Below are positions 29,802-47,493 of a stretch of 64,000 nt of DNA, piece after piece (position 1 is the stretch's first letter; every line of letters starts with the position of its first letter). Source of the DNA: Brevinematales bacterium (GTDB lineage Bacteria > Spirochaetota > Brevinematia > Brevinematales > JAOACQ01); NCBI GenBank assembly GCA_037479045.1, contig JBBFLL010000008.1:1944-65943 (forward strand). Direction: 5' to 3'. The position numbers and the translations under genes were made by a program. Below the pieces are notes generated by a model, which was given only the letters and a program-made list of their open reading frames with translations, was not told where the DNA came from and did not search any database.

Positions 29802-31758
29802 CTCATAATCCCTTATTCAGGTCATTCCTTTCTTACAATAAGTAACTATCCGTACAACTACTTTAGCAACATAAGTCGTAATCCCTTATTCAGGTCATTC
29901 CTTTCTTACAATATATATCTTAATGCTGTTTTTTTACAAGAGATAGGTCGTAATCCCTTATTCAGGTCATTCCTTTCTTACTAGAATAAATTATCATCGC
30001 TGTTGTATTCGCTTATATAAAGTCGTAATCCCTTATTCAGGTCATTCCTTTCTTACATTCTGAAAAAAGAGTTATTAATTTAAATAATACTAATAGTCGT
30101 AATCCCTTATTCAGGTCATTCCTTTCTTACAATTAGACCAGAAGACATTTTAATTTTACCAAGAGGGTCGTAATCCCTTATTCAGGTCATTCCTTTCTTA
30201 CAAGGATACTATAAGAATGCTATTACCAGAAAAATATAATTAGTCGTAATCCCTTATTCAGGTCATTCCTTTCTTACAAAAAATAACTAAGGAGAGAACA
30301 TATTGGCGGTTTTTATTGTCGTAATCCCTTATTCAGGTCATTCCTTTCTTACATTATAACAGAAATAATAATTATAACAGAAATAATTACAACGTCGTAA
30401 TCCCTTATTCAGGTCATTCCTTTCTTACAAAAGTTACAAGATGCAAGAAGAGAGCTTTCAGAAAGGCGTCGTAATCCCTTATTCAGGTCATTCCTTTCTT
30501 ACTTTTGTGGACGAATATGGAAAATATTTAAGTAGAAACCAAGTCGTAATCCCTTATTCAGGTCATTCCTTTCTTACTCTTCCTTGACGGTGAAGTATTT
30601 TTATCGAAAGATGTGTCGTAATCCCTTATTCAGGTCATTCCTTTCTTACAAAAACACGCAGGGAGTTTTACTCCCTGCTTTTTTATGTCGTAATCCCTTA
30701 TTCAGGTCATTCCTTTCTTACCGGCGACACCTTCTCATTTACGATGCGAGAGGCGAAAGTCGTAATCCCTTATTCAGGTCATTCCTTTCTTACAAATATT
30801 ATATCAAATATGATTGGTGTTAAATTAGAAATGAGTCGTAATCCCTTATTCAGGTCATTCCTTTCTTACGGGGAGATATTCTTATCAAAATACCCCGTTA
30901 GGGGGTATTGTCGTAATCCCTTATTCAGGTCATTCCTTTCTTACTTCAGCTTCTCGATGAGGGAAGCGAAAGCAGTGACATGCTTGTCGTAATCCCTTAT
31001 TCAGGTCATTCCTTTCTTACGGAAAAGTATGTTGGATCAATTTGACCACAAAAAGAGTTGTGTCGTAATCCCTTATTCAGGTCATTCCTTTCTTACAAAA
31101 AGTGAAATAGTTATTATAAGATATGCTTGTGGACAGTCGTAATCCCTTATTCAGGTCATTCCTTTCTTACAAGAACACAACAGCATAATTATAACAGAAA
31201 TAATAATGTCGTAATCCCTTATTCAGGTCATTCCTTTCTTACTAGATACAAAGTTTCATTTTACTAAAATAAAATTTACTATGTCGTAATCCCTTATTCA
31301 GGTCATTCCTTTCTTACTAAAATTATCAAGGGTGGATATGAAAGTCTTATAAGGGTCGTAATCCCTTATTCAGGTCATTCCTTTCTTACTATCGCGCAGC
31401 AGACACTATATATCGAAGCGCTGAACAGTCGTAATCCCTTATTCAGGTCATTCCTTTCTTACCGACCATAGCGGCTGGCTCTATGTAAAAGAGCCTCACA
31501 AGCAGTCGTAATCCCTTATTCAGGTCATTCCTTTCTTACGGGATGAGCGCAATGGGATATTGCCCGTTGCAAAATTATGTCGTAATCCCTTATTCAGGTC
31601 ATTCCTTTCTTACAAATTTCTTTTGGTAAGAAGTTATGGAGCGAAAAAAGTCGTAATCCCTTATTCAGGTCATTCCTTTCTTACGGAGGAAAATATGGAA
31701 ACAAATTTAAAAGAAATGGCAAAGTCGTAATCCCTTATTCAGGTCATTCCTTTCTTAC
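29802..31758 (-). CRISPR. CRISPR array, 27 repeats of 35 nt and 26 spacers of 36-42 nt
   Basis: Plus-strand repeat is GTCGTAATCCCTTATTCAGGTCATTCCTTTCTTAC. 26 copies are identical. The copy at 29802-29836 has 2 mismatches (CTCAT...), marking the trailer end. The leader and cas2 lie at the 31.76 kb end, so transcription is inferred on the minus strand (repeat GTAAGAAAGGAATGACCTGAATAAGGGATTACGAC). Confidence 0.97.
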
Positions 31759-32258: not shown

Positions 32259-32530
32259 AATATTTCAAATGCCTCCAATCTTATAAGTTCCCCCTTGCCC
32301 TGCTTTATCGCCTTTCTGGTGCAGGATTCACATAGTGGATAGATGAAAAGATAATCCTCCTTTAAATTTAAAATCTCCAGAAGATCTTTCACAATTTTAT
32401 CAAGAATCTTTTTGTCAGTTTCAAGTTGAAAAAATGATTTTTGAACTCTCAAGCCATATCTTTCAAGAGTAGTAGCAACTTTCCTGAGTCTTTTTTCATC
32501 AGAAATATCATAACATATCATATAAATCAT
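32255..32530 (-). CDS. cas2: CRISPR-associated endoribonuclease Cas2 (copy 1)
   Basis: 91 aa, MICYDISDEKRL, YGLRVQKSFFQ. 4-nt overlap with the second cas2. Confidence 0.85.
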   Translation of the reverse strand: MIYMICYDISDEKRLRKVATTLERYGLRVQKSFFQLETDKKILDKIVKDLLEILNLKEDYLFIYPLCESCTRKAIKQGKGELIRLEAFEIL

Positions 32531-32533
32531 ATT

Positions 32534-33598
32534 CTACCTCACTATCATCGGATTATATTCTATTTTCTCACTATTTACAACTCTATGGAAATGATTAACC
32601 TGTTCTCTTATAACTCTTTTGTAGGTAATGGTTTGCCCAAGAGGTTGATAGAAAATTTCTGTATCGAGCTTTTTTTCAAAATGTGTAATAGCTTTTTTTA
32701 TTCCTTCTTTTGTAAGTAAAACTCCTTTTTTTTCTTCAATCGCAACATTTTCACTTTCTTCCTCAAGGGGATATTCCTCGTCTTTCTTAGAAAAAATCTT
32801 TTCTTCAAAATCTTCTGGATTCAATATTCCAAGATTAAACAATGCCACTGTCGTAGTATCCACTATAGGTGTCCTGAACTCTTCCATAAGGTCAAAGGCA
32901 AGAGTCTTTTTCCCATAGTCAACCGAATGAAAGAAACCAGCAAAAGGGTCAAGTCCTTCAACTTCAATGGCAGACTCAACTCTGTAAAATAATAAAGTAT
33001 AAAGAAAACTCAATACAGCATTAACATTGTCTTCTGGTGGATTTTTACTTCTGCCATTGAAGATTGCCCAATCCTGATTTATAGCATATCTGAAAACCGA
33101 AAAGTAATATTTCGCCGCCATTCCTTCATAACCTCTAACTTGTTCAATACTTTCAGCCCTATCTATAGAATCTGAAATCTGCTTGGTTTTTTGAATAGCC
33201 TCAAATATTTGGGAATTGTTTTCTTTTTTTCTGTTTATCCTTTGCATAAAGTTAAGCTGGTTTCTTATTTTACCACTGACTATAGACTTTGCAAATTTCA
33301 GTTTGAATTCATCATTTTCGAGTAATCTGTATTGTTTTAGCCTGAGATAAACATTTTTGCTATCGCCAAAAGATAGCCTTCCGTTAAATCTGCCGTTTCT
33401 GTTCAAAAAAACAGTATCGATTTTGTATTTCATTATAAGTGAGAGTGCCTGCCCTGTAATTTCTACACCACCTAAGAAAACAAGCTGTTCTGTTTTGAAT
33501 GGAAATATGGTAGTCCTGCATTCTGGAGAATGAAGAACAAGAGTTTCACCTTCTTTACATAATTTTCCACCACTACTTACTATGTAGATTATGGACAT
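32534..33598 (-). CDS. cas1: CRISPR-associated endonuclease Cas1
   Basis: GFFHSVDYGKKTLAFDLMEEFR catalytic His/Asp-Glu block and NAVLSFLYTLL. Start set to MSIIYIV (ATG 33598 preceded by AGGGGGA); the listed upstream 31 aa are rejected. Confidence 0.9.
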   Translation of the reverse strand: MSIIYIVSSGGKLCKEGETLVLHSPECRTTIFPFKTEQLVFLGGVEITGQALSLIMKYKIDTVFLNRNGRFNGRLSFGDSKNVYLRLKQYRLLENDEFKLKFAKSIVSGKIRNQLNFMQRINRKKENNSQIFEAIQKTKQISDSIDRAESIEQVRGYEGMAAKYYFSVFRYAINQDWAIFNGRSKNPPEDNVNAVLSFLYTLLFYRVESAIEVEGLDPFAGFFHSVDYGKKTLAFDLMEEFRTPIVDTTTVALFNLGILNPEDFEEKIFSKKDEEYPLEEESENVAIEEKKGVLLTKEGIKKAITHFEKKLDTEIFYQPLGQTITYKRVIREQVNHFHRVVNSEKIEYNPMIVR

Positions 33599-33680
33599 AA
33601 TTATCCCCCTTTGTGCCACTGAAATATTCACCTTAGTTCTATGACCGGAGAAAAAGATTAAAAACTTATTGAATATTGTC

Positions 33681-34982
33681 TTATTTATCATTTAAAACAA
33701 CTTTATAAACTTCATTAAAGGAATTTTCTAATTCTTTTTTTAACTTCTCGATTTTTATTGGTTGGATAAATCCACAGTGATTTATATCATTTCTAATGTT
33801 TCTTAATCTGTTAAAGATATTAAAAAGCTCTTTTATGTCGTTATTTTCCTTCATCTTTTTCAAGATTTCCAAAATATCATTGTCACCTTTATATTCTTTT
33901 TCATTTATGTTTGGATTCATTACAAAATAAATGGCTGCACTTAACTCTTCTCTTATCTTTTTATTGTTAATTTTATCTTTGTATTTAGTTTTTTCAATCA
34001 AATAAGTAATAAGCATTTCTTGTAATATCGTAATTCCCTGTTGTATCAGATTGTGTTCGATACACCATTTTACTGCTCTAAAACCATTTAAAATATCATC
34101 ACTGTTGAATTCTGTAATTTTTTCTTCTATTTTTTCAAGTAAAGGTATTAAAGCATAACTTAAGTTGAGGTCGGCTCTTTTAATTTCATTTAATAACTTC
34201 TTCGCCTTATTAAAATTTTCTCCCTTTATAATTTGTAGTCCTCTACAGTATAGAATTTCATTTGTTCCAATATCTATCCAGTCTATAAGATGTTTAATTT
34301 TTTTGTAATTATCATCAATTTTTCCACAAAAAGTTTTTTGAAGGGGTATGATGTGTTGATTTACAATTTCTTTTATTTTTCTTGTTGAACCAGAACTTAC
34401 AAATTCTCTTGCTCCTATGCCCCACTCCATTATATCATAATATGGAGTTAAATCAAAAATAGGTGCATTTCTGTCTTTTATATCCCTTTGTCTTACTAAT
34501 GAAATGGGTCCAAGTGTTTCAAATGCTCCATAATATATTCCTTTTATTTTTATATTTTTTAGGAAACGGGCGTAATTTAATAAAGTGATACCAAGCAGTG
34601 GGAGAAGCCTGAAACCATGGGTAATATCAAAAAATACTTCATCACCATCTTTGAATAGGTTAAATACTTTGCTAAAAATTTGCCAAATTTCGTTTTCATT
34701 TGAACCTACTGGAATATCTTTTACAGGTTCAACAATATCATTTTTCTTCAATTCGGATATTTTTTCTTCTAACTTTGGCCAATTCCTATCTTCTGCTTCT
34801 TTAGTGAGAAGAATATAAATTTTGTCGTTGTTGTCTTTTTTAAATTCTTTACAAAAGATTTTTAGCATTGCTTCCTGAACGAATTTAACATTTTCCACTT
34901 TTTGATTTCCAAAATAATAGTTACATTCAACGTAATCATTTGTACCAAGAAAACTTAAAAATACTTTCCTATTATTATTCAT
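33681..34982 (-). CDS. csx1: Csx1-family CARF-HEPN protein (DxTHG motif type)
   Basis: N-terminal Rossmann-like strand VFLSFLGT, DxTHG motif FFDITHGFR, C-terminal HEPN R-x4-H (RNIRNDINH). 433 aa. Confidence 0.8.
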   Translation of the reverse strand: MNNNRKVFLSFLGTNDYVECNYYFGNQKVENVKFVQEAMLKIFCKEFKKDNNDKIYILLTKEAEDRNWPKLEEKISELKKNDIVEPVKDIPVGSNENEIWQIFSKVFNLFKDGDEVFFDITHGFRLLPLLGITLLNYARFLKNIKIKGIYYGAFETLGPISLVRQRDIKDRNAPIFDLTPYYDIMEWGIGAREFVSSGSTRKIKEIVNQHIIPLQKTFCGKIDDNYKKIKHLIDWIDIGTNEILYCRGLQIIKGENFNKAKKLLNEIKRADLNLSYALIPLLEKIEEKITEFNSDDILNGFRAVKWCIEHNLIQQGITILQEMLITYLIEKTKYKDKINNKKIREELSAAIYFVMNPNINEKEYKGDNDILEILKKMKENNDIKELFNIFNRLRNIRNDINHCGFIQPIKIEKLKKELENSFNEVYKVVLNDK

Positions 34983-35589
34983 AAAGAAATTTTACCTCCT
35001 CTTTAAACAAATTTTTTGGATTATCCAATATATATTTCCTTATTTCTTTCAATTCCTCTCCATTTCTTATGATGTGATCATAAAACCGGGATTGCCACTG
35101 GAAATAACATAAATTCGATCTTCTGATTTCATATGTACAACGTCCTTTAAACCACCTCACAATTTTTGATAATGAATTTTTTGTTAACATCGGATTGTGA
35201 ATTCCTGTAATTCCGCCATTTTTATATCCATTTTCGGTATTTTCGATGGTAGGAACGCGATTAATCGCGTTCCTACCATCGAAAATATCATCGACACCGT
35301 TCACAACGACATTATCATTTTCTAAAATAATAATTATACCATGAATATGGTCTGGCATTATAACATAATAATCCAATTTGACATTTTCAAAATGAGATGG
35401 AATTTCGTTCCAGGTTACATCGACAATTTTTCCTATTTCTGACAAAATTACCTCACCATTAATTACCTTTGACAGAATATTCATCCTTTCTTTTACACAT
35501 ATCGTTACAAAATATGCCCCCGGCGAAGAATAATCCCATCCTTTAAGCCTTATAGATTCATTACGATATTTATTCATAAACAATGACAC
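34975..35589 (-). CDS. IS200-like Y1 HUH transposase family protein (RAYT-like)
   Basis: SIRLKGWDYSSPGAYFVTIC N-terminus, HUH motif MPDHIHGIIII, catalytic Tyr helix WQSRFYDHIIRN. GTG start with RBS GGGAG over the upstream stop. 8-nt overlap with the csx1 ATG. Confidence 0.8.
   Translation of the reverse strand: MSLFMNKYRNESIRLKGWDYSSPGAYFVTICVKERMNILSKVINGEVILSEIGKIVDVTWNEIPSHFENVKLDYYVIMPDHIHGIIIILENDNVVVNGVDDIFDGRNAINRVPTIENTENGYKNGGITGIHNPMLTKNSLSKIVRWFKGRCTYEIRRSNLCYFQWQSRFYDHIIRNGEELKEIRKYILDNPKNLFKEEVKFLYE
35238..35287. repeat. 50-nt perfect palindrome inside the HUH gene
   Basis: TATTTTCGATGGTAGGAACGCGATT|AATCGCGTTCCTACCATCGAAAATA. All 25 positions pair, checked base by base. Confidence 0.9.
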
Positions 35590-35592
35590 AAT

Positions 35593-35988
35593 CTACTCCC
35601 AGTATCTATATTTTCTGAATCCCATATGTTTGAAAACAATTCGCTTTTCCACACTTCCATCTGGGTTTCTCACTTCTTCTGCCTTTCTTTCACTTGTGGC
35701 ATAAATCGGGACAAAACCATTCTTTAAGCAAAAATCCACAATTGTAAATGTCGCTCCAAATTCTCCCTGTACAAGTATAAAATCCCCTTTCTCTGCATTA
35801 CTTTCAAGCCAATTTATGATTTCTTCTGTAAATAGTCTGTGTCTATTCTCATCTGGCGGCATCTGTGACCATATATTTTTTTGCCTTATAGGTGGCTCAA
35901 TGATTTCTGTGACTTTGAGTTTCTCTTTTGCCTCAATTATTTGCTCTTCTGTGAGTGTGTGGTTGAGTAAGACTAATAGTTTGGGCAT
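35593..35988 (-). CDS. small type III-associated protein, Csx20-like (tentative)
   Basis: Start set to MPKLLVLLNH (ATG 35988 after GAGGA). The LNHxLTxEQ...GDFILVQGEFGA...PIYATSERK...FKHxGFRKY pattern resembles what I recall of the Csx20 family. Not verified by search. Confidence 0.45.
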   Translation of the reverse strand: MPKLLVLLNHTLTEEQIIEAKEKLKVTEIIEPPIRQKNIWSQMPPDENRHRLFTEEIINWLESNAEKGDFILVQGEFGATFTIVDFCLKNGFVPIYATSERKAEEVRNPDGSVEKRIVFKHMGFRKYRYWE

Positions 35989-36020
35989 AGTTATCCTCAA
36001 TTTTGAAATCATAAAAAATT

Positions 36021-37277
36021 CTATCCTATTCCAAGGATATTTTTTATTTTTTTTACTTTTTCTTTCTGTTTATTACTTACAGATTTTTCATCCCATTTTT
36101 TACACAATTTAAAATACTCCATTAATGCATTAGCTATTTTCTTTTTGTCTTCAATACTTTCTATCTTATCAAGTTTATTGTATATTTCAAAAACCTTTTG
36201 CTCATCCTGTGGGGACGAATTTAGCTTTGATAAGTTATAAATATCTCTTTCTATCTCACTCATTGATTCGAGTTTTCTTTTTTCTTCTTCCTCTTTTTGT
36301 CTTTGGATTTTTTCTTTTTCAATTCTTTCTCTTTCTTTTAATAATTTTTTATATTCTTCTTCTAAATTTTTATCTTCTTCATATTTTACTTCATTAAATA
36401 ATCCATAGCCTAAAGAAGTTTTTGCTCCTATTCCTTCTTCTGTAAGGGCTTTTACCAATGTGTCTTTAACTTTTAAAGTCAAATCACACTCTTTCTTTTC
36501 TATTCTCTCTTTTTTCTCATTTCGATATATTTTATTCTTTCTAACGATAGTCCGAAAAACAAAAGTTGTTCCGGGTTTTACTGTTAAAAACTTTATAGGA
36601 TTTGGTTCAAGATAATCGGCTGGAGGCTTATCGTTTTCGTAATAATCTTTATAATGTGGATTTATTATATCAATATGAAGTTCTGGAACACTTAACGGAT
36701 AAGCATCAAGGAATATTACTCCGCCCATTTCTTTTTGAGTGCCAAAGTAATATGCAATTTCCTCGATTTTATCATCCTCAATATAAAAATTTCCTTTTTT
36801 ATCTTTCTTAATCATACTTTTGTCATTTTTAATCTTGCCAGAATTTAATAAATTCAACATAGTTGCAAACCTCACTACTCCCTTTATGCTTGAAGCGGGG
36901 ATGTAAGGTATCCCAAGATTATAGTCAAAAACCATACTTATCTCATGGGGATGTGGTTGTCCAATGCCTGTAATAAGGGGAGATTTTGTCTTTGCCTGGA
37001 TTACAATAACTTCATATTGATCAGATGGAAATGATTTATAAAATTCTATTTGGGAAAGGTGTTTTTGTTTTAGCAAACCAGGTAAAGAAACTCTTAAACT
37101 AGCAAATTTATCTTTATAATAATTAACTGCATTATTGCTATTTCCTTGGTTATCTGAAGCCTTGTAATTAATATCATTTACTGGTACAAATTTATTATAC
37201 CATAATCCAAAGTTTCCATTAAAATTATTGTTTATTATATCTTTTATATCAATTCCAATAGGATATAAAACCGACAT
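36021..37277 (-). CDS. cmr6: type III-B RAMP protein Cmr6 with C-terminal extension
   Basis: RAMP motifs SSIKGVVRF and glycine-rich loop GAKTSLGYGLF, followed by a further 124 aa that are Lys/Glu-rich. Confidence 0.85.
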   Translation of the reverse strand: MSVLYPIGIDIKDIINNNFNGNFGLWYNKFVPVNDINYKASDNQGNSNNAVNYYKDKFASLRVSLPGLLKQKHLSQIEFYKSFPSDQYEVIVIQAKTKSPLITGIGQPHPHEISMVFDYNLGIPYIPASSIKGVVRFATMLNLLNSGKIKNDKSMIKKDKKGNFYIEDDKIEEIAYYFGTQKEMGGVIFLDAYPLSVPELHIDIINPHYKDYYENDKPPADYLEPNPIKFLTVKPGTTFVFRTIVRKNKIYRNEKKERIEKKECDLTLKVKDTLVKALTEEGIGAKTSLGYGLFNEVKYEEDKNLEEEYKKLLKERERIEKEKIQRQKEEEEKRKLESMSEIERDIYNLSKLNSSPQDEQKVFEIYNKLDKIESIEDKKKIANALMEYFKLCKKWDEKSVSNKQKEKVKKIKNILGIG

Positions 37278-37805
37278 CTAGTTTTCCTCCTTATTCTTAC
37301 TTTCTTCATCACTCAAAAAAGCCTCGGCGTATCTTTTGAACCACTCAAGTAATGCCAATGTTTCTTTTTGAATTGATAAGAAATCTTTTTGATTTAAGTT
37401 ACAAAAAATTTTTTCTACAAAACTTTTTATCATAATATTAAATTTTTTTCTATCATTCTTTTCTTCGGGTGTATTCTCAATTGATACAAGTAAATTATAT
37501 GGATTGTCAGATTGTTGAAACCATTCGGTTATTATTTTTAATAAAAAACCTTCCTTTTTCTTTTCGAAATCAATATGTTGTTTCTTTGAATTTTCATCAA
37601 ATTTGCTGGCTTTTGCAAGCCAGAAAGCAAGTGCCTGACCAAGACCATTCTGAAGTATCATAGAGGGTGCTCCAGATGCAAAGGATTTGAAATTTTTGTT
37701 GTCAAGGCTTTTATAATTTGACAAAATTTCTTCTACTTTTCTTAATGCAAAAGCTGCTCTTTTCTGGGCTAAAGTTCTGATTTCTTTATTCTGACACTCT
37801 GACAT
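37278..37805 (-). CDS. cmr5: type III-B small subunit Cmr5
   Basis: Helical 175-aa protein with SMILQNGLGQALAFWLAK motif. Positioned between cmr4 and cmr6. Confidence 0.7.
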   Translation of the reverse strand: MSECQNKEIRTLAQKRAAFALRKVEEILSNYKSLDNKNFKSFASGAPSMILQNGLGQALAFWLAKASKFDENSKKQHIDFEKKKEGFLLKIITEWFQQSDNPYNLLVSIENTPEEKNDRKKFNIMIKSFVEKIFCNLNQKDFLSIQKETLALLEWFKRYAEAFLSDEESKNKEEN

Positions 37806-37822
37806 AGTTTCCTCCTTTAAGA

Positions 37823-38770
37823 TTAAGGATTTTGATTATTTGATGGAGACAGCCATTTTATTCTGCATATACCTCTGCCAAGAGTTTCATCTCCACCTAT
37901 TTGTATAAAATTTTGTATGTTCTTCTCCACAATATTTTTTACCATTTCAGCTTGCAAGTTATTATTAAATGCTGAAGCACTATAGTAAACCACACTATAG
38001 AGTAAAGTATCTGAAGGTAAAAGTTCCTGGTACCTCAAGCTACCATCCTGCGTCGTTCCTTTTAAACTATCAATTTTAATCTGAGTTTGAACTTCAGTAC
38101 AATATGAGACACAGTAGTAAAAAATGTCATCAGAAACTAAAAGTAACCTTTCAATATTTTCAAATATGTCAGAAATTTGCTTAACCTCTGATTTAATTTC
38201 TGAGATTTCTTTAACTTCTACAACAACATCTTCAAGTATTATTTTTTGATTGTTGGTAATACCTCCTTTTAATGATATAGCTTCTTCGTCATTTATTTTT
38301 TTATATGATAGTTTGTTGTTTATATTAATTCCGCAAAATTCAAGGTCTCTTGAAAGTCTATCCAGAACAGCAGGGCAGGTAACGTGGACAAAAGGCGCAA
38401 TATTTGACCTCATAGGAAAGGCAAGAATTTTTGCATCAGAGACTGAGATTGCTCCTGGTGAATTTATCCTTTCTGAATTTATTTCTACCTCTTTTTCAGG
38501 TTCATCATCGTTATCATAATCAGTTCCAAATATAAAGTTTATTAAAGCCTTATCTTTTTTTTCCAAATTATCTCTTTTTTCATTTCCAGCAAATCTTCTG
38601 AAATGTTGTCTTAAGGCTCCTTTTACAGAAGAAGCCTGAATATGTGGCCAGTTTGTACACCTTTCTCTTTGAATAGGTAAATCAACCACTGATGTTGAAC
38701 TACCTGCTCCAGCATGAATGGGTGAAATGGCATAAAATGTAATTATTGATGTAAACTCTTTTTTTAACAT
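37823..38770 (-). CDS. cmr4: type III-B RAMP backbone subunit Cmr4
   Basis: PIHAGAGSSTSVVDLPIQRE (catalytic Asp region), ASSVKGALR, GGDETLGRG. Start set to MLKKEF after GGAGGA. Confidence 0.9.
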   Translation of the reverse strand: MLKKEFTSIITFYAISPIHAGAGSSTSVVDLPIQRERCTNWPHIQASSVKGALRQHFRRFAGNEKRDNLEKKDKALINFIFGTDYDNDDEPEKEVEINSERINSPGAISVSDAKILAFPMRSNIAPFVHVTCPAVLDRLSRDLEFCGININNKLSYKKINDEEAISLKGGITNNQKIILEDVVVEVKEISEIKSEVKQISDIFENIERLLLVSDDIFYYCVSYCTEVQTQIKIDSLKGTTQDGSLRYQELLPSDTLLYSVVYYSASAFNNNLQAEMVKNIVEKNIQNFIQIGGDETLGRGICRIKWLSPSNNQNP

Positions 38771-38781
38771 ATATTCCTCCA

Positions 38782-39753
38782 TTAACTTATTTTTACTGGA
38801 ATGCTGTTTGGCACTTTTTCTTTAAAGACACTGCCGGGTGGATAGTGCGCTTTAAGTGGTTTATGGAAGCCTTTTGCAAGGTCCCAGCCGCCGATGTAAA
38901 CCACTTTGTCAGTTACTATAAGATTTTCTTTATTTTCTTCACAAGGTATATAAGATAAGCTCATATAGAAAGAAGAATTATCTGATGATAGAGGGATATT
39001 ATTTATCTTTTCATACAGCCCAAATCTCTGTTCAGCACCGACTTTCATAATACCTTTATCGCCAAGACTAATATCCTTAGTTATGCCAAAAACTAAGGAA
39101 ACACATTCTTTAAGTCTGAAGTGTGCATAAGAATAAAGCTGGCTTTCTCTTACTGTTCTGTTATCGTATAATGCTATACCGATCCTTGGTTCTTTGCAGT
39201 AAAAATATGATGGTTTATAGATTTTAATATCATCTTTGATTTCGTCTTTATTGTTTATGGTAATAAAATCAGATAGTTTTATCCAATTTCCTCCGATAGA
39301 CTCGACAAAACCTTTTGCTTTTTGTGGCCATATCTTGATAAGTGCAGAAGAAGCGATAGGTAGATTGTTATCGATTAAAGTTCCTTTTAAGAATTTATTT
39401 TTAGGTATATTTATGACATCTTCTTCTTCAAAATTGTCCATAAACCAGGTATATGGGACTGGAATATAAATTTCATTATTCTTTTCAAATATAGGTCCAA
39501 TAATTTCAAAAGGTGGATTTTCAGATGGTTTCCCAATATCTTCATAGAAACTTTTGTCCAGTTTTCCATCTATATAGTCTTTGATAGTTTTTTCTTCAGG
39601 TAGTTTTTTTAGTAAATATGCAGTTCTTATAGCACCTATGATGGTTTGAGGTGGGGGTGGAAAAATGGATAAAAGAGAGGTTTTATCCTCCTCTGCACCT
39701 CTGATAAGTATTGTATCTACAGGTTTATACCTATACCAACAAATTTCGCTCAT
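38782..39753 (-). CDS. cmr3: type III-B protein Cmr3
   Basis: PPPPQTIIGAIRTA motif, IGGW near the C-terminus, position between cas10 and cmr4. Confidence 0.8.
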   Translation of the reverse strand: MSEICWYRYKPVDTILIRGAEEDKTSLLSIFPPPPQTIIGAIRTAYLLKKLPEEKTIKDYIDGKLDKSFYEDIGKPSENPPFEIIGPIFEKNNEIYIPVPYTWFMDNFEEEDVINIPKNKFLKGTLIDNNLPIASSALIKIWPQKAKGFVESIGGNWIKLSDFITINNKDEIKDDIKIYKPSYFYCKEPRIGIALYDNRTVRESQLYSYAHFRLKECVSLVFGITKDISLGDKGIMKVGAEQRFGLYEKINNIPLSSDNSSFYMSLSYIPCEENKENLIVTDKVVYIGGWDLAKGFHKPLKAHYPPGSVFKEKVPNSIPVKIS

Positions 39754-42568
39754 CTTTACCTCCTGCTATAAATGAAATGATTTTAAGTATGTCTGTGGAA
39801 AATATCCATTTATTTTTTTTGTCTTTTTTACATATAAGGCTTGCAATATTATCATATATTCCTTCATTGTCAACCTTACTATCATATACCTCCTCATTGC
39901 CAACCTTACTTGTTTTTGACTTTTTCAACAAACTTTTAATAAAATCTTTCAATTTTTCTTTGTAGTTTTTATCATCATTTTCAAGAATAGCTAGTACTCC
40001 CTCTTTATAGAAATCAAGATTGTAAATAAATGAGTTTGAAATTAAACCTTTTTGGGCTGTCAATTTTTCAATTGCGTCGATTACTTCATTGTCATTCCAT
40101 TTAAACCAGAATCTTCTATATTCTCCATTTCTTTTGTAAAGTTCAATGGCACAGGTATTTCTACCAGCTTCATCTTTTGCCACATCATCAAGAAGTTCAC
40201 GGGCTCTTCTTAACATAGCAGTCAAAGGCTCTTTGTAATGGCATATAAGTATAGAGGCTGAAATAGTAATATCCTCTGCACTTCCCATACCTATGGATAG
40301 CTTGCCGGGTTTAATTTCAAAATTGCTTTCTGTATTTAAGTATTTTACTTCATATCCATCATCAATTTTTGAAATAAGCCTGAAAGATCTTTTATAAGCC
40401 TCTGAAAGTTCTTTTGCGGCATTTATAGCCTCTGCTATTGGCAACACAGCACACACGTCATCACCACCTGCATAGATAAGTCTTCCTTCATACTTTTTTA
40501 TTATTTGTGGAACTTCATAGATTGCAAAATCAGCAAGTGCTTCAGAAATGGCAGAGTGAATAGCTGGTGTAATAAGCCTTGGCTTATCATATAGAATTTT
40601 CCAATTTTTTCTGTATTTCTCTTCAAAATTTTCTTGAATCATCCTATCTTTAATTTCTGGATGGATTACATCTTCCCAACTAGCTTCTATAGTTTCTCCC
40701 ATTATGAGCTTGCCCATCTTATCTCCATCCATCATAAGAATAGCATAGTATTTGTCTTGAATTTTTAAATCTGGTAAAGTTTCCCCATCCTCTGAATCAA
40801 ATAGAACTTGGGATTTTCTTTCTTTTTCTTCTTCATTAGTAATTTTTTTCCTCTCGAAATATTCATATAAAGCTATATAACTTGTTGAAGGAAAGTATTT
40901 TTTTGTAATTTCTTTGTTTTCATTAAGTTGGGTAAATGTTGAATAAAGTATATGTCTATCTTTTTCTTCTTTTTTTGATTCTGACCAAATCAATGCATCA
41001 GAAAGTAATCTTTTTGTAAGACATACTGAACAAAGTCTTTCGTTTTCTTTTAATTCTCCGCTTTCTTTTTTTTCGTCTGACTGAAAACCTAAGGTTTCTC
41101 TTAAAGTTTTCCAGAAATTATCCATATTTGTTTTATATTCATTTGCTGACTCATTTCCTGTGTATGGTTTATCTGTCAAAGCCTCAAGTTCTCCACAGAG
41201 AGTGCATTTCTTGCCTTGCTGTTCAGTTCGTATGTTTCTATAGGACATCTTTAATGCTGAAAGTGCCCCCTGTATGAGACCGTTTGAAAGAGGATAATAT
41301 TTGCCTACGTGGTTAGAGTCGCAATTGGGAGAGGAATATATTTTATGGAATATATCTACCTGCTCTTTTACTTTATTTATTAAGTTTTCTGAAAGTAAAT
41401 CTTTTGATTCGTCTAAATTTTGTGAAGTAACAAGGGGGGTCACAGCCCAATGAATATCCCAGTAATTTTCATTTTGTTCATCAAAAAGTGTTTTTATATT
41501 ATTCTGATCTTTGCTTGATTCTAACTTTTTTAACTTTTCTTTTATGTAGTCATAGACCATTAGTGTTATTTTTTTCCATTCAGTCTTTATATGAGTAGTG
41601 ATACCTTCTCCAATATCTTTACTATAATTCATTGGCACAAGGAACATAAATTTATTTGGGAATGTAGCTATATCAGTTTCTTTGTGAAGAGAAGGATAAT
41701 ACTTTTCTTCCATTTTCCAGTTTTTTCTTAAGTACTCAATCACAAGAGGCTGATCAACTATCGAAGGAAAGAGAATATGATCTGGACCGAGGTTTTCTAT
41801 AATCCATCTAATGCCTTCAAAAGTAAGCCAGGATAATAGTATCGATCCCGTCCAGAAGTCTCGTAATTTTCTTGCTTTTGTTATGAATGACTGGACAGGT
41901 GAGATGGAAAAAATCATTATACCTACATTGGTGATATTTTCTGTTATTTCAGGATTTGAATCTGGATTCATACACGAATAAATAGCTGAAGCAAGTGCAT
42001 TATGATGCCAAATAGAATGATCTGGTATTCTTGAATCTGCTGGTATTCTATGCCATAAAGCTCCAAGACCTGCCACATTGTCGTCACTAGCAAGTTTAAA
42101 TCTTAATGCAAGATGTGTGTAAAGAAAGCGGGCAATGGCAGATTTGTCTGAATTATTTGTAAAGTTATCTGAATATCTTATATTTTCAGAACTAATTCCG
42201 ATTACGTCCTTTATTAAATCTATAACTTCATTGTTATTGCCGCTACTTGGATTAATATTTGTTAAATTTAATTTTTCGCCACTTAATGGATGAGTTAAGA
42301 TAGGGCTACTTTTAAAATCAACAGCCCCATTTTGATTGGGATCTTTATTATAGGATGGGAAATCTCCCCTTTCAAAGCCAGAAGCTATTCTATCTGGTTT
42401 TTCTACTATGATATCGAAATTATCCGGTATCTGAAGTCCAAAGACCTCAAGAATTTTTTTAGCTCTTTCTTTATGACCTTGAATATCTAAAAGTTTGTCA
42501 GGTGGGTCGTGGAGATAGGCAAGAAGTTTGTTGTTCCAGTAGGTTTGATCTCGTTTTGTGAATGGCAT
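39731..42568 (-). CDS. cas10: Cas10/Cmr2, type III signature protein
   Basis: N-terminal HD region (AYLHDPPDK), Zn-ribbon cysteines (CTLCG...CSVC), cyclase palm with IYAGGDDV. Start set to MPFTKRDQ (ATG 42568 after GGAGGA). Confidence 0.92.
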   Translation of the reverse strand: MPFTKRDQTYWNNKLLAYLHDPPDKLLDIQGHKERAKKILEVFGLQIPDNFDIIVEKPDRIASGFERGDFPSYNKDPNQNGAVDFKSSPILTHPLSGEKLNLTNINPSSGNNNEVIDLIKDVIGISSENIRYSDNFTNNSDKSAIARFLYTHLALRFKLASDDNVAGLGALWHRIPADSRIPDHSIWHHNALASAIYSCMNPDSNPEITENITNVGIMIFSISPVQSFITKARKLRDFWTGSILLSWLTFEGIRWIIENLGPDHILFPSIVDQPLVIEYLRKNWKMEEKYYPSLHKETDIATFPNKFMFLVPMNYSKDIGEGITTHIKTEWKKITLMVYDYIKEKLKKLESSKDQNNIKTLFDEQNENYWDIHWAVTPLVTSQNLDESKDLLSENLINKVKEQVDIFHKIYSSPNCDSNHVGKYYPLSNGLIQGALSALKMSYRNIRTEQQGKKCTLCGELEALTDKPYTGNESANEYKTNMDNFWKTLRETLGFQSDEKKESGELKENERLCSVCLTKRLLSDALIWSESKKEEKDRHILYSTFTQLNENKEITKKYFPSTSYIALYEYFERKKITNEEEKERKSQVLFDSEDGETLPDLKIQDKYYAILMMDGDKMGKLIMGETIEASWEDVIHPEIKDRMIQENFEEKYRKNWKILYDKPRLITPAIHSAISEALADFAIYEVPQIIKKYEGRLIYAGGDDVCAVLPIAEAINAAKELSEAYKRSFRLISKIDDGYEVKYLNTESNFEIKPGKLSIGMGSAEDITISASILICHYKEPLTAMLRRARELLDDVAKDEAGRNTCAIELYKRNGEYRRFWFKWNDNEVIDAIEKLTAQKGLISNSFIYNLDFYKEGVLAILENDDKNYKEKLKDFIKSLLKKSKTSKVGNEEVYDSKVDNEGIYDNIASLICKKDKKNKWIFSTDILKIISFIAGGKDERNLLV

Positions 42569-42596
42569 TGTTATCCTCCATTGGATTTTTTGTTTT

Positions 42597-42648
42597 AATT
42601 TTCTGGTGGTAGCCACGTGATTAATCACGTGGCTACCACCAGAAAATT
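42597..42648. repeat. 52-nt perfect palindrome in the cmr1-cas10 intergenic spacer
   Basis: AATTTTCTGGTGGTAGCCACGTGATT|AATCACGTGGCTACCACCAGAAAATT. Same architecture as the palindrome at 35238-35287. Confidence 0.9.
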
Positions 42649-42653
42649 TATAA

Positions 42654-43648
42654 TTAGGGGCAAAGATAATTTATAAAATCTGCTGTTTTGTCATTACTTA
42701 AATTAATATCCGTCACATTCGGGTCGAAAGCAACATTTAGTTGAGTTATTATTGGAAAATATACCCCATTATACTTATAGCATGAAATATAAAGTGTCAT
42801 AACACTGTCTCGAAGAGTTGTAGCATACTTTCATTATCCTTATAGCATGAAATATAAAGTGGGGAAGCAAATCTTTTGGTTACTTGTTGTGGATTATTTT
42901 GCACACTTCTTCTACCGGCATATCCTGTGTAGTCACAGTTATAGTTGTGGGAAGCAGTACCTATTTCTTTTAATAGAGTATTATAATCATCAAATTTCTT
43001 TCCAACTTTAATAAATTTTACATAAGGAAAATTTAAAGTTAAATTATTATTAGTTAATTCAATTTGATCATTATTAACTTTAAATTTTTGTGGATTTATT
43101 TTGTCTAAATAATCAAAAACATTTGATATAATACCATTATTGATCCCAAAATTTTCATTATTTTTTTTGTTTATTACAAAAGAACCAAAGCCTCTTCTTG
43201 CTCTTCTACCAAGTCCTCCAACAATCGAGAAAAGTATAAATAGGTTTTCAAAAATATCTTTTGTGTTTTCATAACATGTCAATGAGATTTTGAAAATATT
43301 ATTGTCGGGTAAAAAACAGGGTAAGCTAAAATTTGGTTTTTCTTTGTGTGGAAGAGGTTTGTAATTATTATTTTTATTAAATTGTGGATTTTGTAAAATC
43401 TGTATTTTTAACTTGCTCTTTTTATCTGTTGAACCGAAAAGGTCTAATTCTGCTTCTTTAAGTTTTCCAATATCGCTATAATTTATTCCATACAAAGCCC
43501 TCCACCAGAATCTGAGTGCTCCCTTTATAGAAGCTGGTCTTAACTCACATTCACTTTGATTTGCTCCAGATAGGAACATAGGTGTTATGATTTCGCATTC
43601 AAACTCAAGCTTTTCCACGTTCTTGTATCTCTCAACATAAAATTCCAT
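42654..43648 (-). pseudogene. cmr1: type III-B RAMP protein Cmr1, interrupted by a 65-nt insertion (frameshift)
   Basis: ASIKGALRFWWRA motif. The listed ORF stops at 42797 inside the insert. The expected C-terminus (LYISCYKYNGVYFPIITQLNVAFDPNV...LCP*) continues in another frame down to 42654. Confidence 0.7.
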
Positions 43649-43666
43649 AAAGCCTCCTTCAAAAGT

Positions 43667-44569
43667 TTATTTTTCAATCAACATAACTTTTCCCAGCCCA
43701 AAAGCCACATTTTTGCCAACGTTGAAAACCTCTGCCCCTTTGAGTAAGGAAATATCAAAGGGTGTAAACTTTCCTTCAAGTATAAAAGAACCGACTACTC
43801 CACCGAGTTTTAATAAATCTTTCTGTCTTGCTGAATAGTGTTTTAAATCCTTCCAAAAGAGATTTTTCTCTTTTATGGAAATAGTTTTATTTTCTTTCCA
43901 CTCTGGAAAATTCCCTTCACCATAAAGAGAATTAAGTACAAAGAGTCTTCTATAGATTGACTCAAAAAAGTCATTTGCTTCAAAATCAGAGAGGTACTTT
44001 CCGTCTTTTTTGAAACGAAATGGGGTTTTGAGTTCTACTTTAATGCTTTTTTCTTCAAAAGTTTCTGTATCAGATAAGAGTTCAAATTTCTTAAATTCCT
44101 CTGGCATTTTTACGTTATCTTTGTCTTCAATGATAGATTTGCCATCTACGCTGACATCGTTAACTTCAAATTTGATTCTCTCTTTCTGGATCCCGTATTT
44201 TCCAGCCTTAACAAGTGCATAGTAGAAATAAGGAAAATAACTTATAGCTTTTCCAATTATGGTAACATATAAGTTTATTTTTTCAGTTTTAACATTTTCA
44301 TCTGCCTCGGAATAAAGCACGAAGGGGTGAGGGGATTTTTCATTTTTTGGTAGAACAGAATTATCTTTATCAATAATCGTTTCAAAAATCATTGCATAGG
44401 CACACTCTCGATTTATAGAGCAATCAATACATTTTCTTTTTTTGAAAAGGCAGACAGTATTGTGAAGTTGCATGCCAATGACACTGCGGAAAAGGAAGAG
44501 GGGATGAATCTTGAAAGATAGCTTAGTTTCAAAGTTTATGGCTATTGAAAATAATGAAAACGTTAGCAT
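43667..44569 (-). CDS. cas6: Cas6-family CRISPR endoribonuclease
   Basis: First gene of the Cmr operon. C-terminal glycine-rich loop GKNVAFGLGKV. Four-Cys cluster C-x6-C-x2-C-x5-C near the N-terminus. Confidence 0.75.
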   Translation of the reverse strand: MLTFSLFSIAINFETKLSFKIHPLFLFRSVIGMQLHNTVCLFKKRKCIDCSINRECAYAMIFETIIDKDNSVLPKNEKSPHPFVLYSEADENVKTEKINLYVTIIGKAISYFPYFYYALVKAGKYGIQKERIKFEVNDVSVDGKSIIEDKDNVKMPEEFKKFELLSDTETFEEKSIKVELKTPFRFKKDGKYLSDFEANDFFESIYRRLFVLNSLYGEGNFPEWKENKTISIKEKNLFWKDLKHYSARQKDLLKLGGVVGSFILEGKFTPFDISLLKGAEVFNVGKNVAFGLGKVMLIEK

Positions 44570-44792
44570 ATTTCTCTCTAATTATATTACAAAAATAAAA
44601 TATAAAATTTTGAAATTAATTATTAAAATTCTTATTAGAACATTTTTAATTTGTTTTTGGAGTTTAATAAGCAGAGAAAATATTTTAAAAGTTGGTTTTA
44701 ATTTACATAAGAATTTAAAAAAAATCAAATTTTTTGATTTTTTTTTATTTAAAAGGGGAAATAAATGGATAGCTGTAAATCAAGTCGCTAAC

Positions 44793-44821
44793 TTGACAGC
44801 CTTTTATTTTCACTTTAAAAT
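44793..44821 (+). promoter_or_regulatory. sigma70-type promoter for valS
   Basis: TTGACA (44793-44798), 17 nt, TAAAAT (44816-44821), about 33 nt before the valS ATG. Confidence 0.55.
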
Positions 44822-44853
44822 GTTTATTCTCTAAAAATAAACAGGGTATAAAA

Positions 44854-47493
44854 ATGAATATGGAATTAGGGTCTTACAATCATCTTGATTTTGAGGATGA
44901 GATATACAAATACTGGCTTGAAAGGGGTTATTTCAAAAGTAGTGTAAATAACTCAAAAAAGCCATACACAATAGTTATGCCTCCTCCCAATGTTACGGGA
45001 GTTTTACATATGGGGCATGTGCTTAACAATTCTATTCAGGATGTTTTGATAAGATACTATAGAATGAACGGTTATGAAGCATGCTGGATACCGGGGACAG
45101 ACCATGCATCTATTGCCACCGAAGCAAAAGTTACAAAGTATTTGCAGGATAAAGGCATAGATAAATTCAAAATTGGTAGAGAGAAGTTTCTTGAGTATGC
45201 ATGGGAGTGGAAGGAAAAATACGGTGGAATCATCATAAGTCAGCTTAAGAAGCTTGGGTGTAGTTGCGATTGGTCGAGAGAAAGATTTACAATGGATGAA
45301 GGTTATTATAAAGCTGTGATATATGCTTTTGTTGAGCTTTTTAAGAAAGGTTATATATATAGAGGGTATAGACTTGTTAACTGGTGTCCTGTTTCAAGAT
45401 CTGCTATTTCTGATGAAGAAGTTTATTATAAAGAAGTAGAAGGAAAGTTATACTATTTCCTTTACCCAATCAAAGGAACAAAAGAATTTCTTGAGATAGC
45501 TACAACAAGACCTGAGACAATGCTTGGAGATACAGCTGTAGCAGTAAATCCTAAGGATACAAGATATAAAAAGTATATTGGTAAAACTGTAGTCCTTCCA
45601 ATAGTTGAAAGAGAAATCCCAATAATTGCAGATGAGTATGTTGATATGGAGTTTGGAACTGGTGTGGTAAAGATAACACCAGCTCACGATCCAAATGACT
45701 ATGAAATAGGTTTAAAACACAATCTTGAATTTATAAACATTTTGAATCCAGATGCAACATTAAATAATAATGTTCCAGAAGATTTCAGAGGGCTTGATAG
45801 ATATGAAGCAAGAGAAGCTGTAGTTGAAAGAATGAAGGAGCTTAAATACCTTACAAAGATAGAAAATCATACTCATAAAGTTGGCTATAGTGAGAGAGGA
45901 CATGTCCCTATAGAGCCATATTTGTCTGAACAGTGGTTTTTAAAAATGGAAGAACTTGTCAAGCCAGCAATAGAGGTTGTTAAATCAGGTAAAATTCAAT
46001 TTTTCCCCGAAAGATGGACAAAAACTTATTTTCACTGGCTTGAAAATATTAAAGATTGGTGTATTTCAAGACAGCTCTGGTGGGGGCACAGAATTCCTGT
46101 TTATTATTGTGAAGACTGTGGATTTTATTATGCTTACACTGAAGCACCTTTGAAATGTGAAAAATGTGGAAGTAAGAAAATAAAGCAGGATCCTGATGTT
46201 CTCGATACTTGGGCATCTTCTTGGTTATGGCCTTTTGCTGTTCATAAGTGGCCTGAAATAGAAGAAAATCTTAAATACTATTATCCTACTGATACGCTTG
46301 TTACGGCTCCAGAAATAATATTTTTCTGGGTAGCCAGAATGATCATTGCAGGTATGGAATTTATTGGTGAGATACCTTTTAAGAAGGTATACTTTACGGG
46401 GACTGTTCGTGATGAAATAGGTAGAAAAATGTCAAAGTCTCTTGGAAATTCTCCTGATCCACTTGATGTAATAAAGGAATATGGTGCAGATGCTTTAAGA
46501 TTTACGATACTGAGACTTGCTCCACTGGGCAATGATATTTTCTATGACAATCAAAAGTGTGAAATAGGTAGAAATTTTGCCAATAAAGTCTGGAATGCTT
46601 CAAAATTCATTCTTCAAAATATAAAAAATATAAAATTAAAGGAAATAAAGGAAGTTAAACTTGATATTTTTGATAAATGGATCTTGTCAAAATATAGCAA
46701 ATCTCTTAAGAAATTAAGGGAAGAGATAGAATCTTTTTATTTTAATGATGCGGCTGTTACATTATATGATTTTATATGGAGTGAGTTTTGTGATTGGTAT
46801 ATTGAATCGAGTAAGATTGCTTTATATTCTGATAACAATCAGGATAAAGAAAACAAGGCTTCAGTTCTTTACTTTCTTCTTGTAAATATTTTAAAAATGC
46901 TACATCCTTATATGCCATTTATCACAGAAAGGATCTATAGAATTCTTCCAGTAAAGGAAACAGAAAGCATAATGGTAAGTAATTTTCCTACTTACGATGA
47001 GAATCTTGTATTTGAAAATGAAGAAAAAACTGTAGAATTTCTCAAAGAAGTTATATATATTATTAGAAATTTAAGAGGAGAAAACAAGGCTCCGCCAGCT
47101 ACAGAATTAAATGTAAATATAAAACTTTCTAATAATAGGGAAGAAGATTTAATAAAGAACGAAATTTATCTTAAAAAACTTGCAAAAGTAAAGAATTTCA
47201 CTATAATAGATGAAGCATATAAAAAAGCTCCGATGGAAGTTGTGGGGCTGGGGAATGGCTTTGAGGTATATTTAATACTTGAAGGCCTTGTTGATGTTGA
47301 AAAAGAAAAAGAAAGAATCACAAAAGAAATTGAAAGACTTACGAAGCAGATAGAGGGGGTCAGTCAAAAGTTGAAAAATCCGTCTTTTCTTGAAAAAGCC
47401 CCCAAAGATGTTATAGAAAGAGAAGAAAAGAAGCTTGAAAACTGGCAAACAGAACTTGACAAATTAAAACAAAATCTTTTAAATTTAAGGTAG
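44854..47493 (+). CDS. valS: valyl-tRNA synthetase
   Basis: Class I HIGH (HMGHVLN) and KMSKS motifs, CP1 editing domain, C-terminal coiled coil. 879 aa. Confidence 0.97.
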   Translation: MNMELGSYNHLDFEDEIYKYWLERGYFKSSVNNSKKPYTIVMPPPNVTGVLHMGHVLNNSIQDVLIRYYRMNGYEACWIPGTDHASIATEAKVTKYLQDKGIDKFKIGREKFLEYAWEWKEKYGGIIISQLKKLGCSCDWSRERFTMDEGYYKAVIYAFVELFKKGYIYRGYRLVNWCPVSRSAISDEEVYYKEVEGKLYYFLYPIKGTKEFLEIATTRPETMLGDTAVAVNPKDTRYKKYIGKTVVLPIVEREIPIIADEYVDMEFGTGVVKITPAHDPNDYEIGLKHNLEFINILNPDATLNNNVPEDFRGLDRYEAREAVVERMKELKYLTKIENHTHKVGYSERGHVPIEPYLSEQWFLKMEELVKPAIEVVKSGKIQFFPERWTKTYFHWLENIKDWCISRQLWWGHRIPVYYCEDCGFYYAYTEAPLKCEKCGSKKIKQDPDVLDTWASSWLWPFAVHKWPEIEENLKYYYPTDTLVTAPEIIFFWVARMIIAGMEFIGEIPFKKVYFTGTVRDEIGRKMSKSLGNSPDPLDVIKEYGADALRFTILRLAPLGNDIFYDNQKCEIGRNFANKVWNASKFILQNIKNIKLKEIKEVKLDIFDKWILSKYSKSLKKLREEIESFYFNDAAVTLYDFIWSEFCDWYIESSKIALYSDNNQDKENKASVLYFLLVNILKMLHPYMPFITERIYRILPVKETESIMVSNFPTYDENLVFENEEKTVEFLKEVIYIIRNLRGENKAPPATELNVNIKLSNNREEDLIKNEIYLKKLAKVKNFTIIDEAYKKAPMEVVGLGNGFEVYLILEGLVDVEKEKERITKEIERLTKQIEGVSQKLKNPSFLEKAPKDVIEREEKKLENWQTELDKLKQNLLNLR

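Follow-up and report, generated by a model that had tools for sequence, protein, structure and literature searches.

The stretch of DNA analysed here (the window, 64 kb in length) comes from a metagenome-assembled genome of a spirochaete of the Brevinematia, and carries a type III-B CRISPR-Cas locus in which every gene lies on the − strand. Two long perfect palindromes are found in this locus. One, at 42597-42648, occupies the spacer between cmr1 and cas10 (cmr2), and the other, at 35238-35287, lies inside a gene for an HUH enzyme of the TnpA-REP (RAYT) type, 7 kb away in the same cas operon. From their sequences there is little doubt that the intergenic palindrome is a repetitive extragenic palindrome (REP) of the double-foot type, with the GTAG tag of that family.

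The intergenic palindrome and its sibling

The intergenic element, AATTTTCTGGTGGTAGCCACGTGATTAATCACGTGGCTACCACCAGAAAATT, is a perfect palindrome of 52 nt, as the sequence-only reading of this DNA had described it: its two arms of 26 nt show 100% complementarity and are joined without a spacer. It is made up of a core, GTAGCCACGTGATTAATCACGTGGCTAC, at 42609-42636, and outer arms AATTTTCTGGTG and CACCAGAAAATT, and no strand is assigned to it. The core begins with a GTAG foot (42609-42612) and ends with CTAC (42633-42636). The sibling is a perfect palindrome of 50 nt with arms of 25 nt, likewise with both feet and no assigned strand; its core, GTAGGAACGCGATTAATCGCGTTCCTAC, is at 35249-35276, and within the gene it encodes IFDGRNAINRVPTIEN. 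Common to the two is thus a 28-nt core of the form GTAG-N20-CTAC. The architecture that had been proposed to link them holds: the pattern TGGTAGNNACGNGATTAATCNCGTNNCTACCA matches these two sites in the window and no others, even with 3 mismatches allowed, and 0 matches are expected from shuffled sequences. They are also the only long perfect palindromes in the window (32% G+C) that are not AT-rich.

The outer arms of the two copies are alike (ATTTTC, then 2-3 nt, then TG), a resemblance for which we roughly estimate a chance of about 1 in 100. A common form beginning TTTTC-nn-TGGTAG had been suggested for them. This fits the sibling, but the intergenic copy has 3 nt (TGG) where the form has two, so that the copies differ by a 1-nt indel mirrored across both arms. 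It is true that every difference between them is mirrored, and this follows automatically from both copies being perfect palindromes. Mirrored changes alone are no proof of selection; templating of one arm by the other can also keep palindromes perfect.

The sequence at 42597-42648 is predicted to fold very stably, both as RNA (minimum free energy −50.1 kcal/mol, z −8.8) and as single-stranded DNA (−29.3 kcal/mol, z −13). In the sense transcript the predicted stem is about 24 bp long and closes in a UUAA loop. An intrinsic (Rho-independent) terminator of the cas transcript was considered and rejected, since the sequence after the hairpin on the sense (−) strand, AAAACAAAAAAT, has no run of T; the sequence-only reading had come to the same view. 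A known RNA family was rejected as well, because a search of Rfam with the palindrome found no family and only sub-threshold matches to generic hairpins (miRNA precursors).

The element sits close to both neighbouring genes. The cas10 gene (39731-42568, − strand; P0121, 99% identical) starts with ATG at 42568-42566 and has a Shine-Dalgarno sequence, GGAGGA, at 42579-42574; the end of the hairpin is 28 nt upstream of the ATG, and the stem is about 16 nt upstream of the Shine-Dalgarno sequence. The stop codon of cmr1 (TAA, 42654-42656, − strand), as called in sister assemblies, is 5 nt upstream of the hairpin and is out of frame in the window. The gap of 85 nt originally given for this junction agrees with the genes as called in the three sister assemblies, whereas in the window itself the cmr1 open reading frame (ORF) ends at 42797.

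The HUH gene and the wider REP family

The HUH/Y1 gene (34975-35589, − strand, 204 aa) is the only HUH gene in the window. It is tightly packed between csx20 and the accessory gene that precedes cas1, and overlaps or abuts both. Its product carries the motifs PDHIHG (HuH), WQSRF and YILDNP (with the catalytic Tyr), and the residues H77, H79, W161, Y182 and N186 are invariant across 34 homologues from many phyla. The Pfam family Y1_Tnp is matched with 25.8 bits (cut-off 23), and 2044 homologues were found, many of them named RayT. When sequences in the PDB were searched with the HUH profile, the sole match was 4ER8, the TnpA-REP of E. coli bound to a REP. The same structure is the best Foldseek match (E 9e-7) of the AlphaFold2 model of the protein, which has a pLDDT of 82, and is followed by the TnpA proteins of ISDra2 and IS608; the sequence identity to 4ER8 is only about 17%.

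The protein fits subclass 2.4 of TnpA-REP (TnpA-Y1) as defined by Quentin, Siguier, Chandler and Fichant (2018), which is group 4 of the RAYTs of Bertels et al. (2017) (PMC6006769; PMC5581495). Members of this subclass have a median length of 194 aa and the motifs NH[IFV]H, WQ and YIxNNP, and are abundant in Cyanobacteria and Bacteroidetes and scattered elsewhere; their REPs are 'long' or 'double foot', with 5' GT[AG]G and 3' C[TC]AC, and frequently one of them is an in-frame insertion in the tnpA-REP gene itself (PMC6006769). Group 4 RAYTs are reported from Cyanobacteria and other classes (PMC5581495), and according to Di Nocera et al. (2013) the RAYT of E. coli recognises and cuts the REP tag GTAG (PMC3733652). 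The system in the window shares with this subclass the HuH, WQ and YIxxNP motifs, the length of about 200 aa, a variable insertion between the HuH strand and the next helix, a REP with 5' GTAG and 3' CTAC, an in-frame copy inside the tnpA-REP gene, and a patchy distribution that spans many phyla. It differs in having DHIH at the published NH[IFV]H motif, in arms of 25-26 nt compared with the usual 14, in an extragenic copy that lies in a cas intercistronic spacer, and in a gene without REPs within 1 kb that stands, tightly packed, in a type III-B cas operon with csx20 and the accessory gene as its neighbours. The host is also different, Brevinematia being a group of spirochaetes that is unmentioned in PMC6006769.

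In the AlphaFold2 model, the residues encoded by the in-gene palindrome (about 96-111) sit in a loop of low confidence (residues 91-111, pLDDT <50) directly after the HuH strand; this variable loop of the enzyme is disordered in the model. The core of this copy is also found in a homologue from Torokbacteria. To place these palindromes in their family, 80 metagenomic loci encoding HUH homologues were surveyed. In 48 of the 80 genes the central loop contains a perfect GTAG...CTAC palindrome of 28-29 nt, and further genes contain decayed ones. The palindrome is read in frame 0 (VET...) in 34 genes and in frame 1 (GRD...) in 14, and never in the frame with the TAG stop. Protein alignment shows the region after the HuH motif to be hypervariable, with the consensus peptide nonetheless being RDAINRVST, which is the translation of GTAGAGACGCGATTAATCGCGTCTCTAC in frame 1; other members of the family have VETRFIAS, or two or three repeats, at this place. 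The RDAINRVST and VETRFIAS types are different-frame readings of closely related palindromes of one class.

The inner stem and loop of the in-gene palindromes fall into several classes (...GACGCGATTAATCGCGTC..., ...GACGTTGCATGCAACGTC..., ...GGGCGAAAAATTTTTCGCCC..., ...GGGTTCAAAATTTTGAACCC... and others), and extragenic GTAG palindromes that flank a gene are of the same class as the in-gene copy of their locus. Over the 10 nt after GTAG, in-gene and extragenic copies of one locus have an identity of 0.81, and those of different loci 0.49 (permutation p=5e-5). By these sequences, the in-gene palindrome is a DNA-level feature of the entire family. Covariation between protein and REP class was also considered as proof of co-evolution; the signal is real (0.78 compared with 0.47, p=2e-4, with REP-coded residues masked), but it was not used, because the REP is physically part of the gene and the comparison is confounded. 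It is worth adding that the closest homologue outside the source lineage (L225:740-3992, 53% identical) has a canonical in-gene REP and lies two genes upstream of the HsdR gene of a type I restriction system, another defence-region context.

The core has also spread far beyond HUH genes. The canonical form, GTAGAGACGCGATTAATCGCGTCTCTAC, is unchanged across Cyanobacteria, Bacteroidota, the Candidate Phyla Radiation and other phyla, and at least 120 genome stretches contain the pattern GTAGNNACGNGATTAATCNCGTNNCTAC. Among the matches listed, the hosts include Nostocales, Bacteroidota, Patescibacteria, Crenothrix, Spirochaetia, Myxococcota and Abditibacteria; 117 of the 126 copies are exactly GTAGAGACGCGATTAATCGCGTCTCTAC, 12 lie inside an HUH ORF or no more than 150 nt from one, and 64 appear to be intergenic. 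The sequence-only reading held that the hairpin is preserved and not the primary sequence; the hairpin is indeed kept, but these counts show that the sequence is as well. The same pattern is found in 18 contigs of a viral collection, with 0 copies inside HUH genes and 12 of the 23 copies outside any stop-free frame of at least 100 aa. The genome of Calothrix PCC 7103 alone has at least 4 copies of the core. Small dispersed repeats in Nostoc were reportedly described by Elhai et al. in 2008.

Extragenic cores are often central in longer perfect palindromes, whose outer arms are locus-specific and reach up to 32 nt per arm (L027, L033, L069, L128, L138 and others), and there are cores nested inside another copy (L075:2441-2468, L106:556-583, L215:569-629). 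Either the core inserts into the centres of hairpins, or a flank is duplicated in inverted orientation and so lengthens the arms. The two copies in the window, with their arms of 25-26 nt, would by their sequence belong to this extended kind; the intergenic palindrome measures 52 nt as against a conserved core of 28 nt, the length of the core in 79 of 126 sampled copies. Among the non-extended copies at loci L001-L221, AA directly follows CTAC on the 3' side in about 44% (on the other strand, TT directly before GTAG), and the flanks most often combine as CC...AA. This bias may represent a target or cleavage-site preference.

History and variability of the cas locus

Three NCBI assemblies (L019-L021) carry the same HUH protein and the same locus, with both palindromes identical to those in the window. 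A second species is represented by a Logan contig (L222), in which Cas10 has 82% amino acid identity to that of the window, with 84.6% identity at the nucleotide level and 73.7% at third codon positions. The csx20-HUH arrangement in it is the same. This contig starts inside the intergenic palindrome (L222:1-31) and ends inside the in-gene one (L222:7170-7200); perfect palindromes thus break assemblies, and cas loci can be cut up by them in metagenomes. Of the intergenic palindrome 31 bases are visible, all of them the same as in the window, whereas the adjacent 28 nt differ by two substitutions and one indel. The chance of such identity is P ~0.006 when gene-wide identity is taken as the reference and 8e-5 with third-position identity, or about 0.013 and 4e-4 when only 26 independent arm positions are counted. 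The intergenic palindrome is thus kept unchanged in a second species. The in-gene copy, on the other hand, has changed between the two species, reading GTAG-GG-ACGCG in L222 and GTAG-GA-ACGCG in the window, and the left outer arm in the window has an extra 12 nt, ATGATATTTTCG, which encode the peptide DDIF. Family members usually have arms of 14 nt, and the long arms are for this reason probably derived.

In two more distant Cmr loci (L223 and L224, Cas10 about 50% identical) the HUH gene is absent, the stop codon of cmr1 overlaps the start codon of cas10 (TAATG), and there is no hairpin at this junction. The overlap in this outgroup implies that the 85-nt spacer with its palindrome is an insertion that occurred in the Brevinematia lineage. 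On the opposite strand of one of these REP-free loci (L223:4618-6690) a gene encodes a protein of 690 aa that has an adenosine-deaminase domain and matches Cas_NE0113 faintly; it adjoins a Cas_APE2256 (Csm6/Csx1-like) gene.

The remaining genes of the locus in the window, all on the − strand, can be listed in order. The first is cas6 (43667-44569), followed by cmr1 (ORF 42797-43648), cas10, and then cmr3, cmr4, cmr5 and cmr6. Next come csx20 (35593-36012), the HUH gene, the accessory gene (33681-34982), cas1 (32534-33691) and two cas2 genes, as called in sister assemblies, and the CRISPR array is at about 29806-30649. In the divergent region between cas6 and valS there is an AT-rich perfect inverted repeat (44717-44745, with 13-nt arms and a 3-nt loop), near the best promoter-like match on the + strand (44793-44821).

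The cmr1 ORF of the window is shortened relative to L019/L021 by a 65-nt insertion at about 42797-42861, in the 3' part of the gene; here about 42 nt of new sequence are enclosed by a 23-nt direct repeat, CACTTTATATTTCATGCTATAAG. The insertion shifts the frame, so that the ORF ends at 42797 and Cmr1 has 283 aa instead of 309-321 aa; this could be a real truncation or an assembly artefact. A further difference between these near-identical strains is that the accessory gene has been swapped (window 33649-35008): in the window it encodes a 433-aa DxTHG protein of the TIGR02221/TM1812 family, and in L019-L021 it encodes Card1 (369 aa, CARF plus nuclease). The breakpoints of the swap are located 33 nt ahead of the stop codon of the HUH gene (left) and at the start of cas1 (right). 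When positions 32400-45600 are compared with L019-L021, most 400-nt bins are identical, and the differences are confined to patches (44000-44400, 42800-43200, 41200-41600, 38800-39200, 35600-36000 and 33600-35200). These patches form a mosaic of recombination tracts inside the cas locus. An exchangeable module from cas10 to csx20, bracketed by the two REPs, was considered and rejected; the strain differences are patchy throughout the locus and not centred on the palindromes, and relatives that lack the REPs share the same gene order.

Origin and possible role of the intergenic REP

Taken together, the best explanation, and one that we consider likely, is that the intergenic palindrome is a double-foot REP of the subclass 2.4 TnpA-REP family, that it was placed by the enzyme, and that it has an effect at the RNA level. 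The link to a RAYT-type HUH enzyme, which the sequence-only reading had put forward, is thus supported by the published class and by sequence comparisons. There is a better than even chance that the intergenic REP depends on the HUH enzyme of the same operon, while a selected role of the hairpin in cas expression is put forward only tentatively.

The steps of mobilisation proposed here are drawn from homology with the E. coli TnpA-REP (4ER8) and the TnpA proteins of IS608 and ISDra2. The enzyme would recognise the GTAG foot and the stem-loop of a hairpin extruded in single-stranded DNA, for example in the lagging-strand template, and would cleave and rejoin the DNA through a 5'-phosphotyrosine intermediate; a copy could in this way have been placed at the cmr1/cas10 junction. 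A perfect palindrome offers the enzyme the identical substrate on both strands. One arm serving as template for the other, by template switching, by repair within the hairpin or by fresh copying, could maintain the symmetry together with its mirrored differences, among them the 1-nt indel; we propose this because several positions vary between classes and yet each copy sampled is perfect. In E. coli, template switching at quasi-palindromes is an established process. Within the transcript of cas6, cmr1 and cas10, the predicted hairpin may uncouple the translation of cmr1 and cas10, which overlap as TAATG in relatives; it may also block 3' exonucleases or be cut by a double-strand RNase, in analogy to the intercistronic REPs of E. 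coli. Such REPs are known to modulate operon expression, stabilising mRNA at malE-malF and lowering translation when they lie near stop codons. The comparison is close in that the hairpin here is likewise intercistronic, a few nt past a stop codon and without a U-run; it differs in that the stem is much longer (about 24 bp).

Other known systems are less similar. The E. coli REPs and BIMEs (bacterial interspersed mosaic elements), with their group 2 TnpA-REP (4ER8; PMC3479197, PMC8266576), share with the window the fold and the catalytic motifs of the enzyme, the GTAG tag at the foot of the hairpin and, by analogy, presumably a folded single-stranded substrate. They are different in being imperfect, with a bulge that is needed for activity, and in having a single GTAG foot, which makes recognition strand-specific, whereas the REP in the window is perfect, symmetric and identical on both strands. 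REPINs resemble it as long hairpin-forming units of inverted REP halves associated with a single-copy RAYT, but they consist of two inverted REPs and a spacer, and the arms of the intergenic palindrome have no spacer. In the insertion sequences of the IS200/IS605 family (IS608, ISDra2) an HUH/Y1 enzyme also recognises hairpins in single-stranded DNA, at subterminal positions, with a tetranucleotide 5' of the stem as a guide, and the enzyme in the window may work similarly. However, its gene has no flanking hairpins, no distinct left and right ends and no tnpB, is present in one copy in the window, and forms no mobile unit with borders of its own.

Several observations weigh against this explanation. 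The only NCBIfam match of the HUH protein, REP_Tyr_transpos, reaches 58.4 bits compared with a cut-off of 80. A classical REPtron has REPs within about 1 kb of the cognate gene; here the 1 kb on either side of the HUH gene contains none, one copy being inside the gene and the nearest extragenic one 7 kb away, and the 64-kb window holds only these 2 double-foot copies. These two are mismatched at 3 of the 14 core arm positions, which means that they are not recent copies of one another. Published assays of RAYTs concern groups 2 and 3 only, and not subclass 2.4 (PMC8266576), and perfecting the stem of an E. coli REP abolished its cleavage (quoted in PMC3733652), so that the rules of recognition may differ for the symmetric REPs of the window. 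An effect of the hairpin on the mRNA is purely predicted.

The most serious alternative is that the element, though of the same REP origin, is now a neutral passenger that does not influence cas expression, and that it survives either by doing no harm or through homogenisation with other copies in the genome. REPs are commonly seen as selfish or neutral (PMC3116915; PMC3733652), most HUH homologues and REPs are found in contexts unrelated to CRISPR, and concerted evolution with other copies could mimic conservation. It is less easily reconciled with an arm that is 31/31 identical in the second species, where third positions of cas10 are at 74% and the neighbouring 28-nt spacer has changed. Homogenisation is also not general, since the in-gene sibling has changed between the same two species (GA to GG, and the 12-nt extension of the arm). 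We regard such a neutral passenger as quite possible, if on the whole not the expected case. The exact position of the hairpin, 5 nt past the cmr1 stop and before the cas10 Shine-Dalgarno sequence, its very stable RNA stem and its conservation in two species could also point to a dedicated RNA element for regulation or processing (an RNase III site or an mRNA stabiliser), whose likeness to the palindrome in the HUH gene is incidental. This is improbable, given that the GTAG/CTAC feet and the centre ACG-N-GATTAATC-N-CGT are common to hundreds of copies in unrelated genomes and are present in the HUH gene of the same operon, and that Rfam contains no matching family; it is in any case compatible with exaptation of a REP, and therefore not truly exclusive of the explanation preferred here.

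Transcription could enter the cas operon in the antisense direction and be terminated at the palindrome. On the + strand the stem is followed by ATTTATAATT, and a lenient terminator scan was passed, but this tail is poor in T for an intrinsic terminator, no gene or strong promoter on the + strand lies upstream within the cas genes, and the same family is found in contexts without such a tail, making this very unlikely. The perfect dyad symmetry of the palindrome, with ATTAAT at the centre, and a weak promoter-like match upstream on the − strand (42694-42666, 9/12) would be expected of an operator in double-stranded DNA, to which a dimeric regulator of an internal cas10 promoter binds. At 52 bp the palindrome far exceeds the length of an operator, the same core occurs inside coding sequence and at many unrelated intergenic sites across phyla, the locus has no regulator gene, and promoter-like matches are no commoner than in shuffled sequences (16 compared with 12.1 +/- 3.7), and we give an operator hardly any credence. 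The palindrome might finally be what is left of a decayed second HUH gene, or a copy from one, as the sequence-only reading suggested from the peptides GSHVINHVAT and GRNAINRVPT. Both frame readings are correct and they are indeed parallel, but every copy of the palindrome gives a peptide of this kind when read in that frame, and extragenic copies standing by themselves are the norm for the family. The entire gap is just 85 nt, nothing in the flanks of the palindrome resembles the HUH profile, and in the outgroup the gap is missing altogether. A gene relic was therefore rejected as highly improbable, and that part of the suggestion falls; a copy derived from the HUH gene, or from the same family, is plausible.

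It could further be asked whether the TnpA-REP and its REP have been taken over by the CRISPR-Cas system, with the hairpin setting the ratio of Cmr1 to Cas10, or with the HUH nuclease serving adaptation or the ancillary genes; it may, for example, process single-stranded DNA for Cas1-Cas2. In favour of this, the HUH gene and the hairpin are both kept in two species, and the gene is translationally packed into the operon. Moreover, among the 80 random metagenomic HUH loci 2 are adjacent to cas genes, compared with roughly 0.04 in 80 estimated for a random gene: one is in a type I-C locus with the order cas3-cas5-cas8c-cas7-x-cas4-HUH-cas1-cas2 (L179:6742-7380), and the other has the order HUH-cas4-cas1 (L208:2363-2935). 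The three cas-adjacent HUH genes are not close relatives (ranks 24-76 of 82, scattered in the family), and the nearest homologues of the HUH protein in the window adjoin a type I restriction gene or unrelated genes. A CRISPR-specific clade of HUH proteins was rejected on these grounds, and we read the adjacency as repeated landing in variable defence regions and not as a dedicated Cas accessory clade. Co-option by the CRISPR-Cas system is doubtful. The word CRISPR does not occur in the 2018 paper on the subclass (PMC6006769), the main text of a survey of CRISPR-linked genes contains neither HUH nor IS200 and has 'transposase' once, a literature search on COG1943 and CRISPR gave nothing relevant, and neither the sequence string of the palindrome nor its peptides were found in the literature searched.

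The type of element is thus already published; what is new is the Brevinematia host, the embedding in a type III-B locus, the conserved intercistronic copy and the long arms. A described class, subclass 2.4 TnpA-REP with symmetric double-foot REPs, is now found in a compact and conserved setting, with one enzyme gene and two cognate hairpins inside 7.4 kb; one hairpin is in the part of the gene that codes for the loop, and the other in a cas intercistronic spacer. This compactness makes it a simple test bed for how an HUH enzyme recognises a perfectly symmetric hairpin, for why this family retains a REP within the enzyme gene itself, and for whether a REP can retune expression in a CRISPR effector operon.

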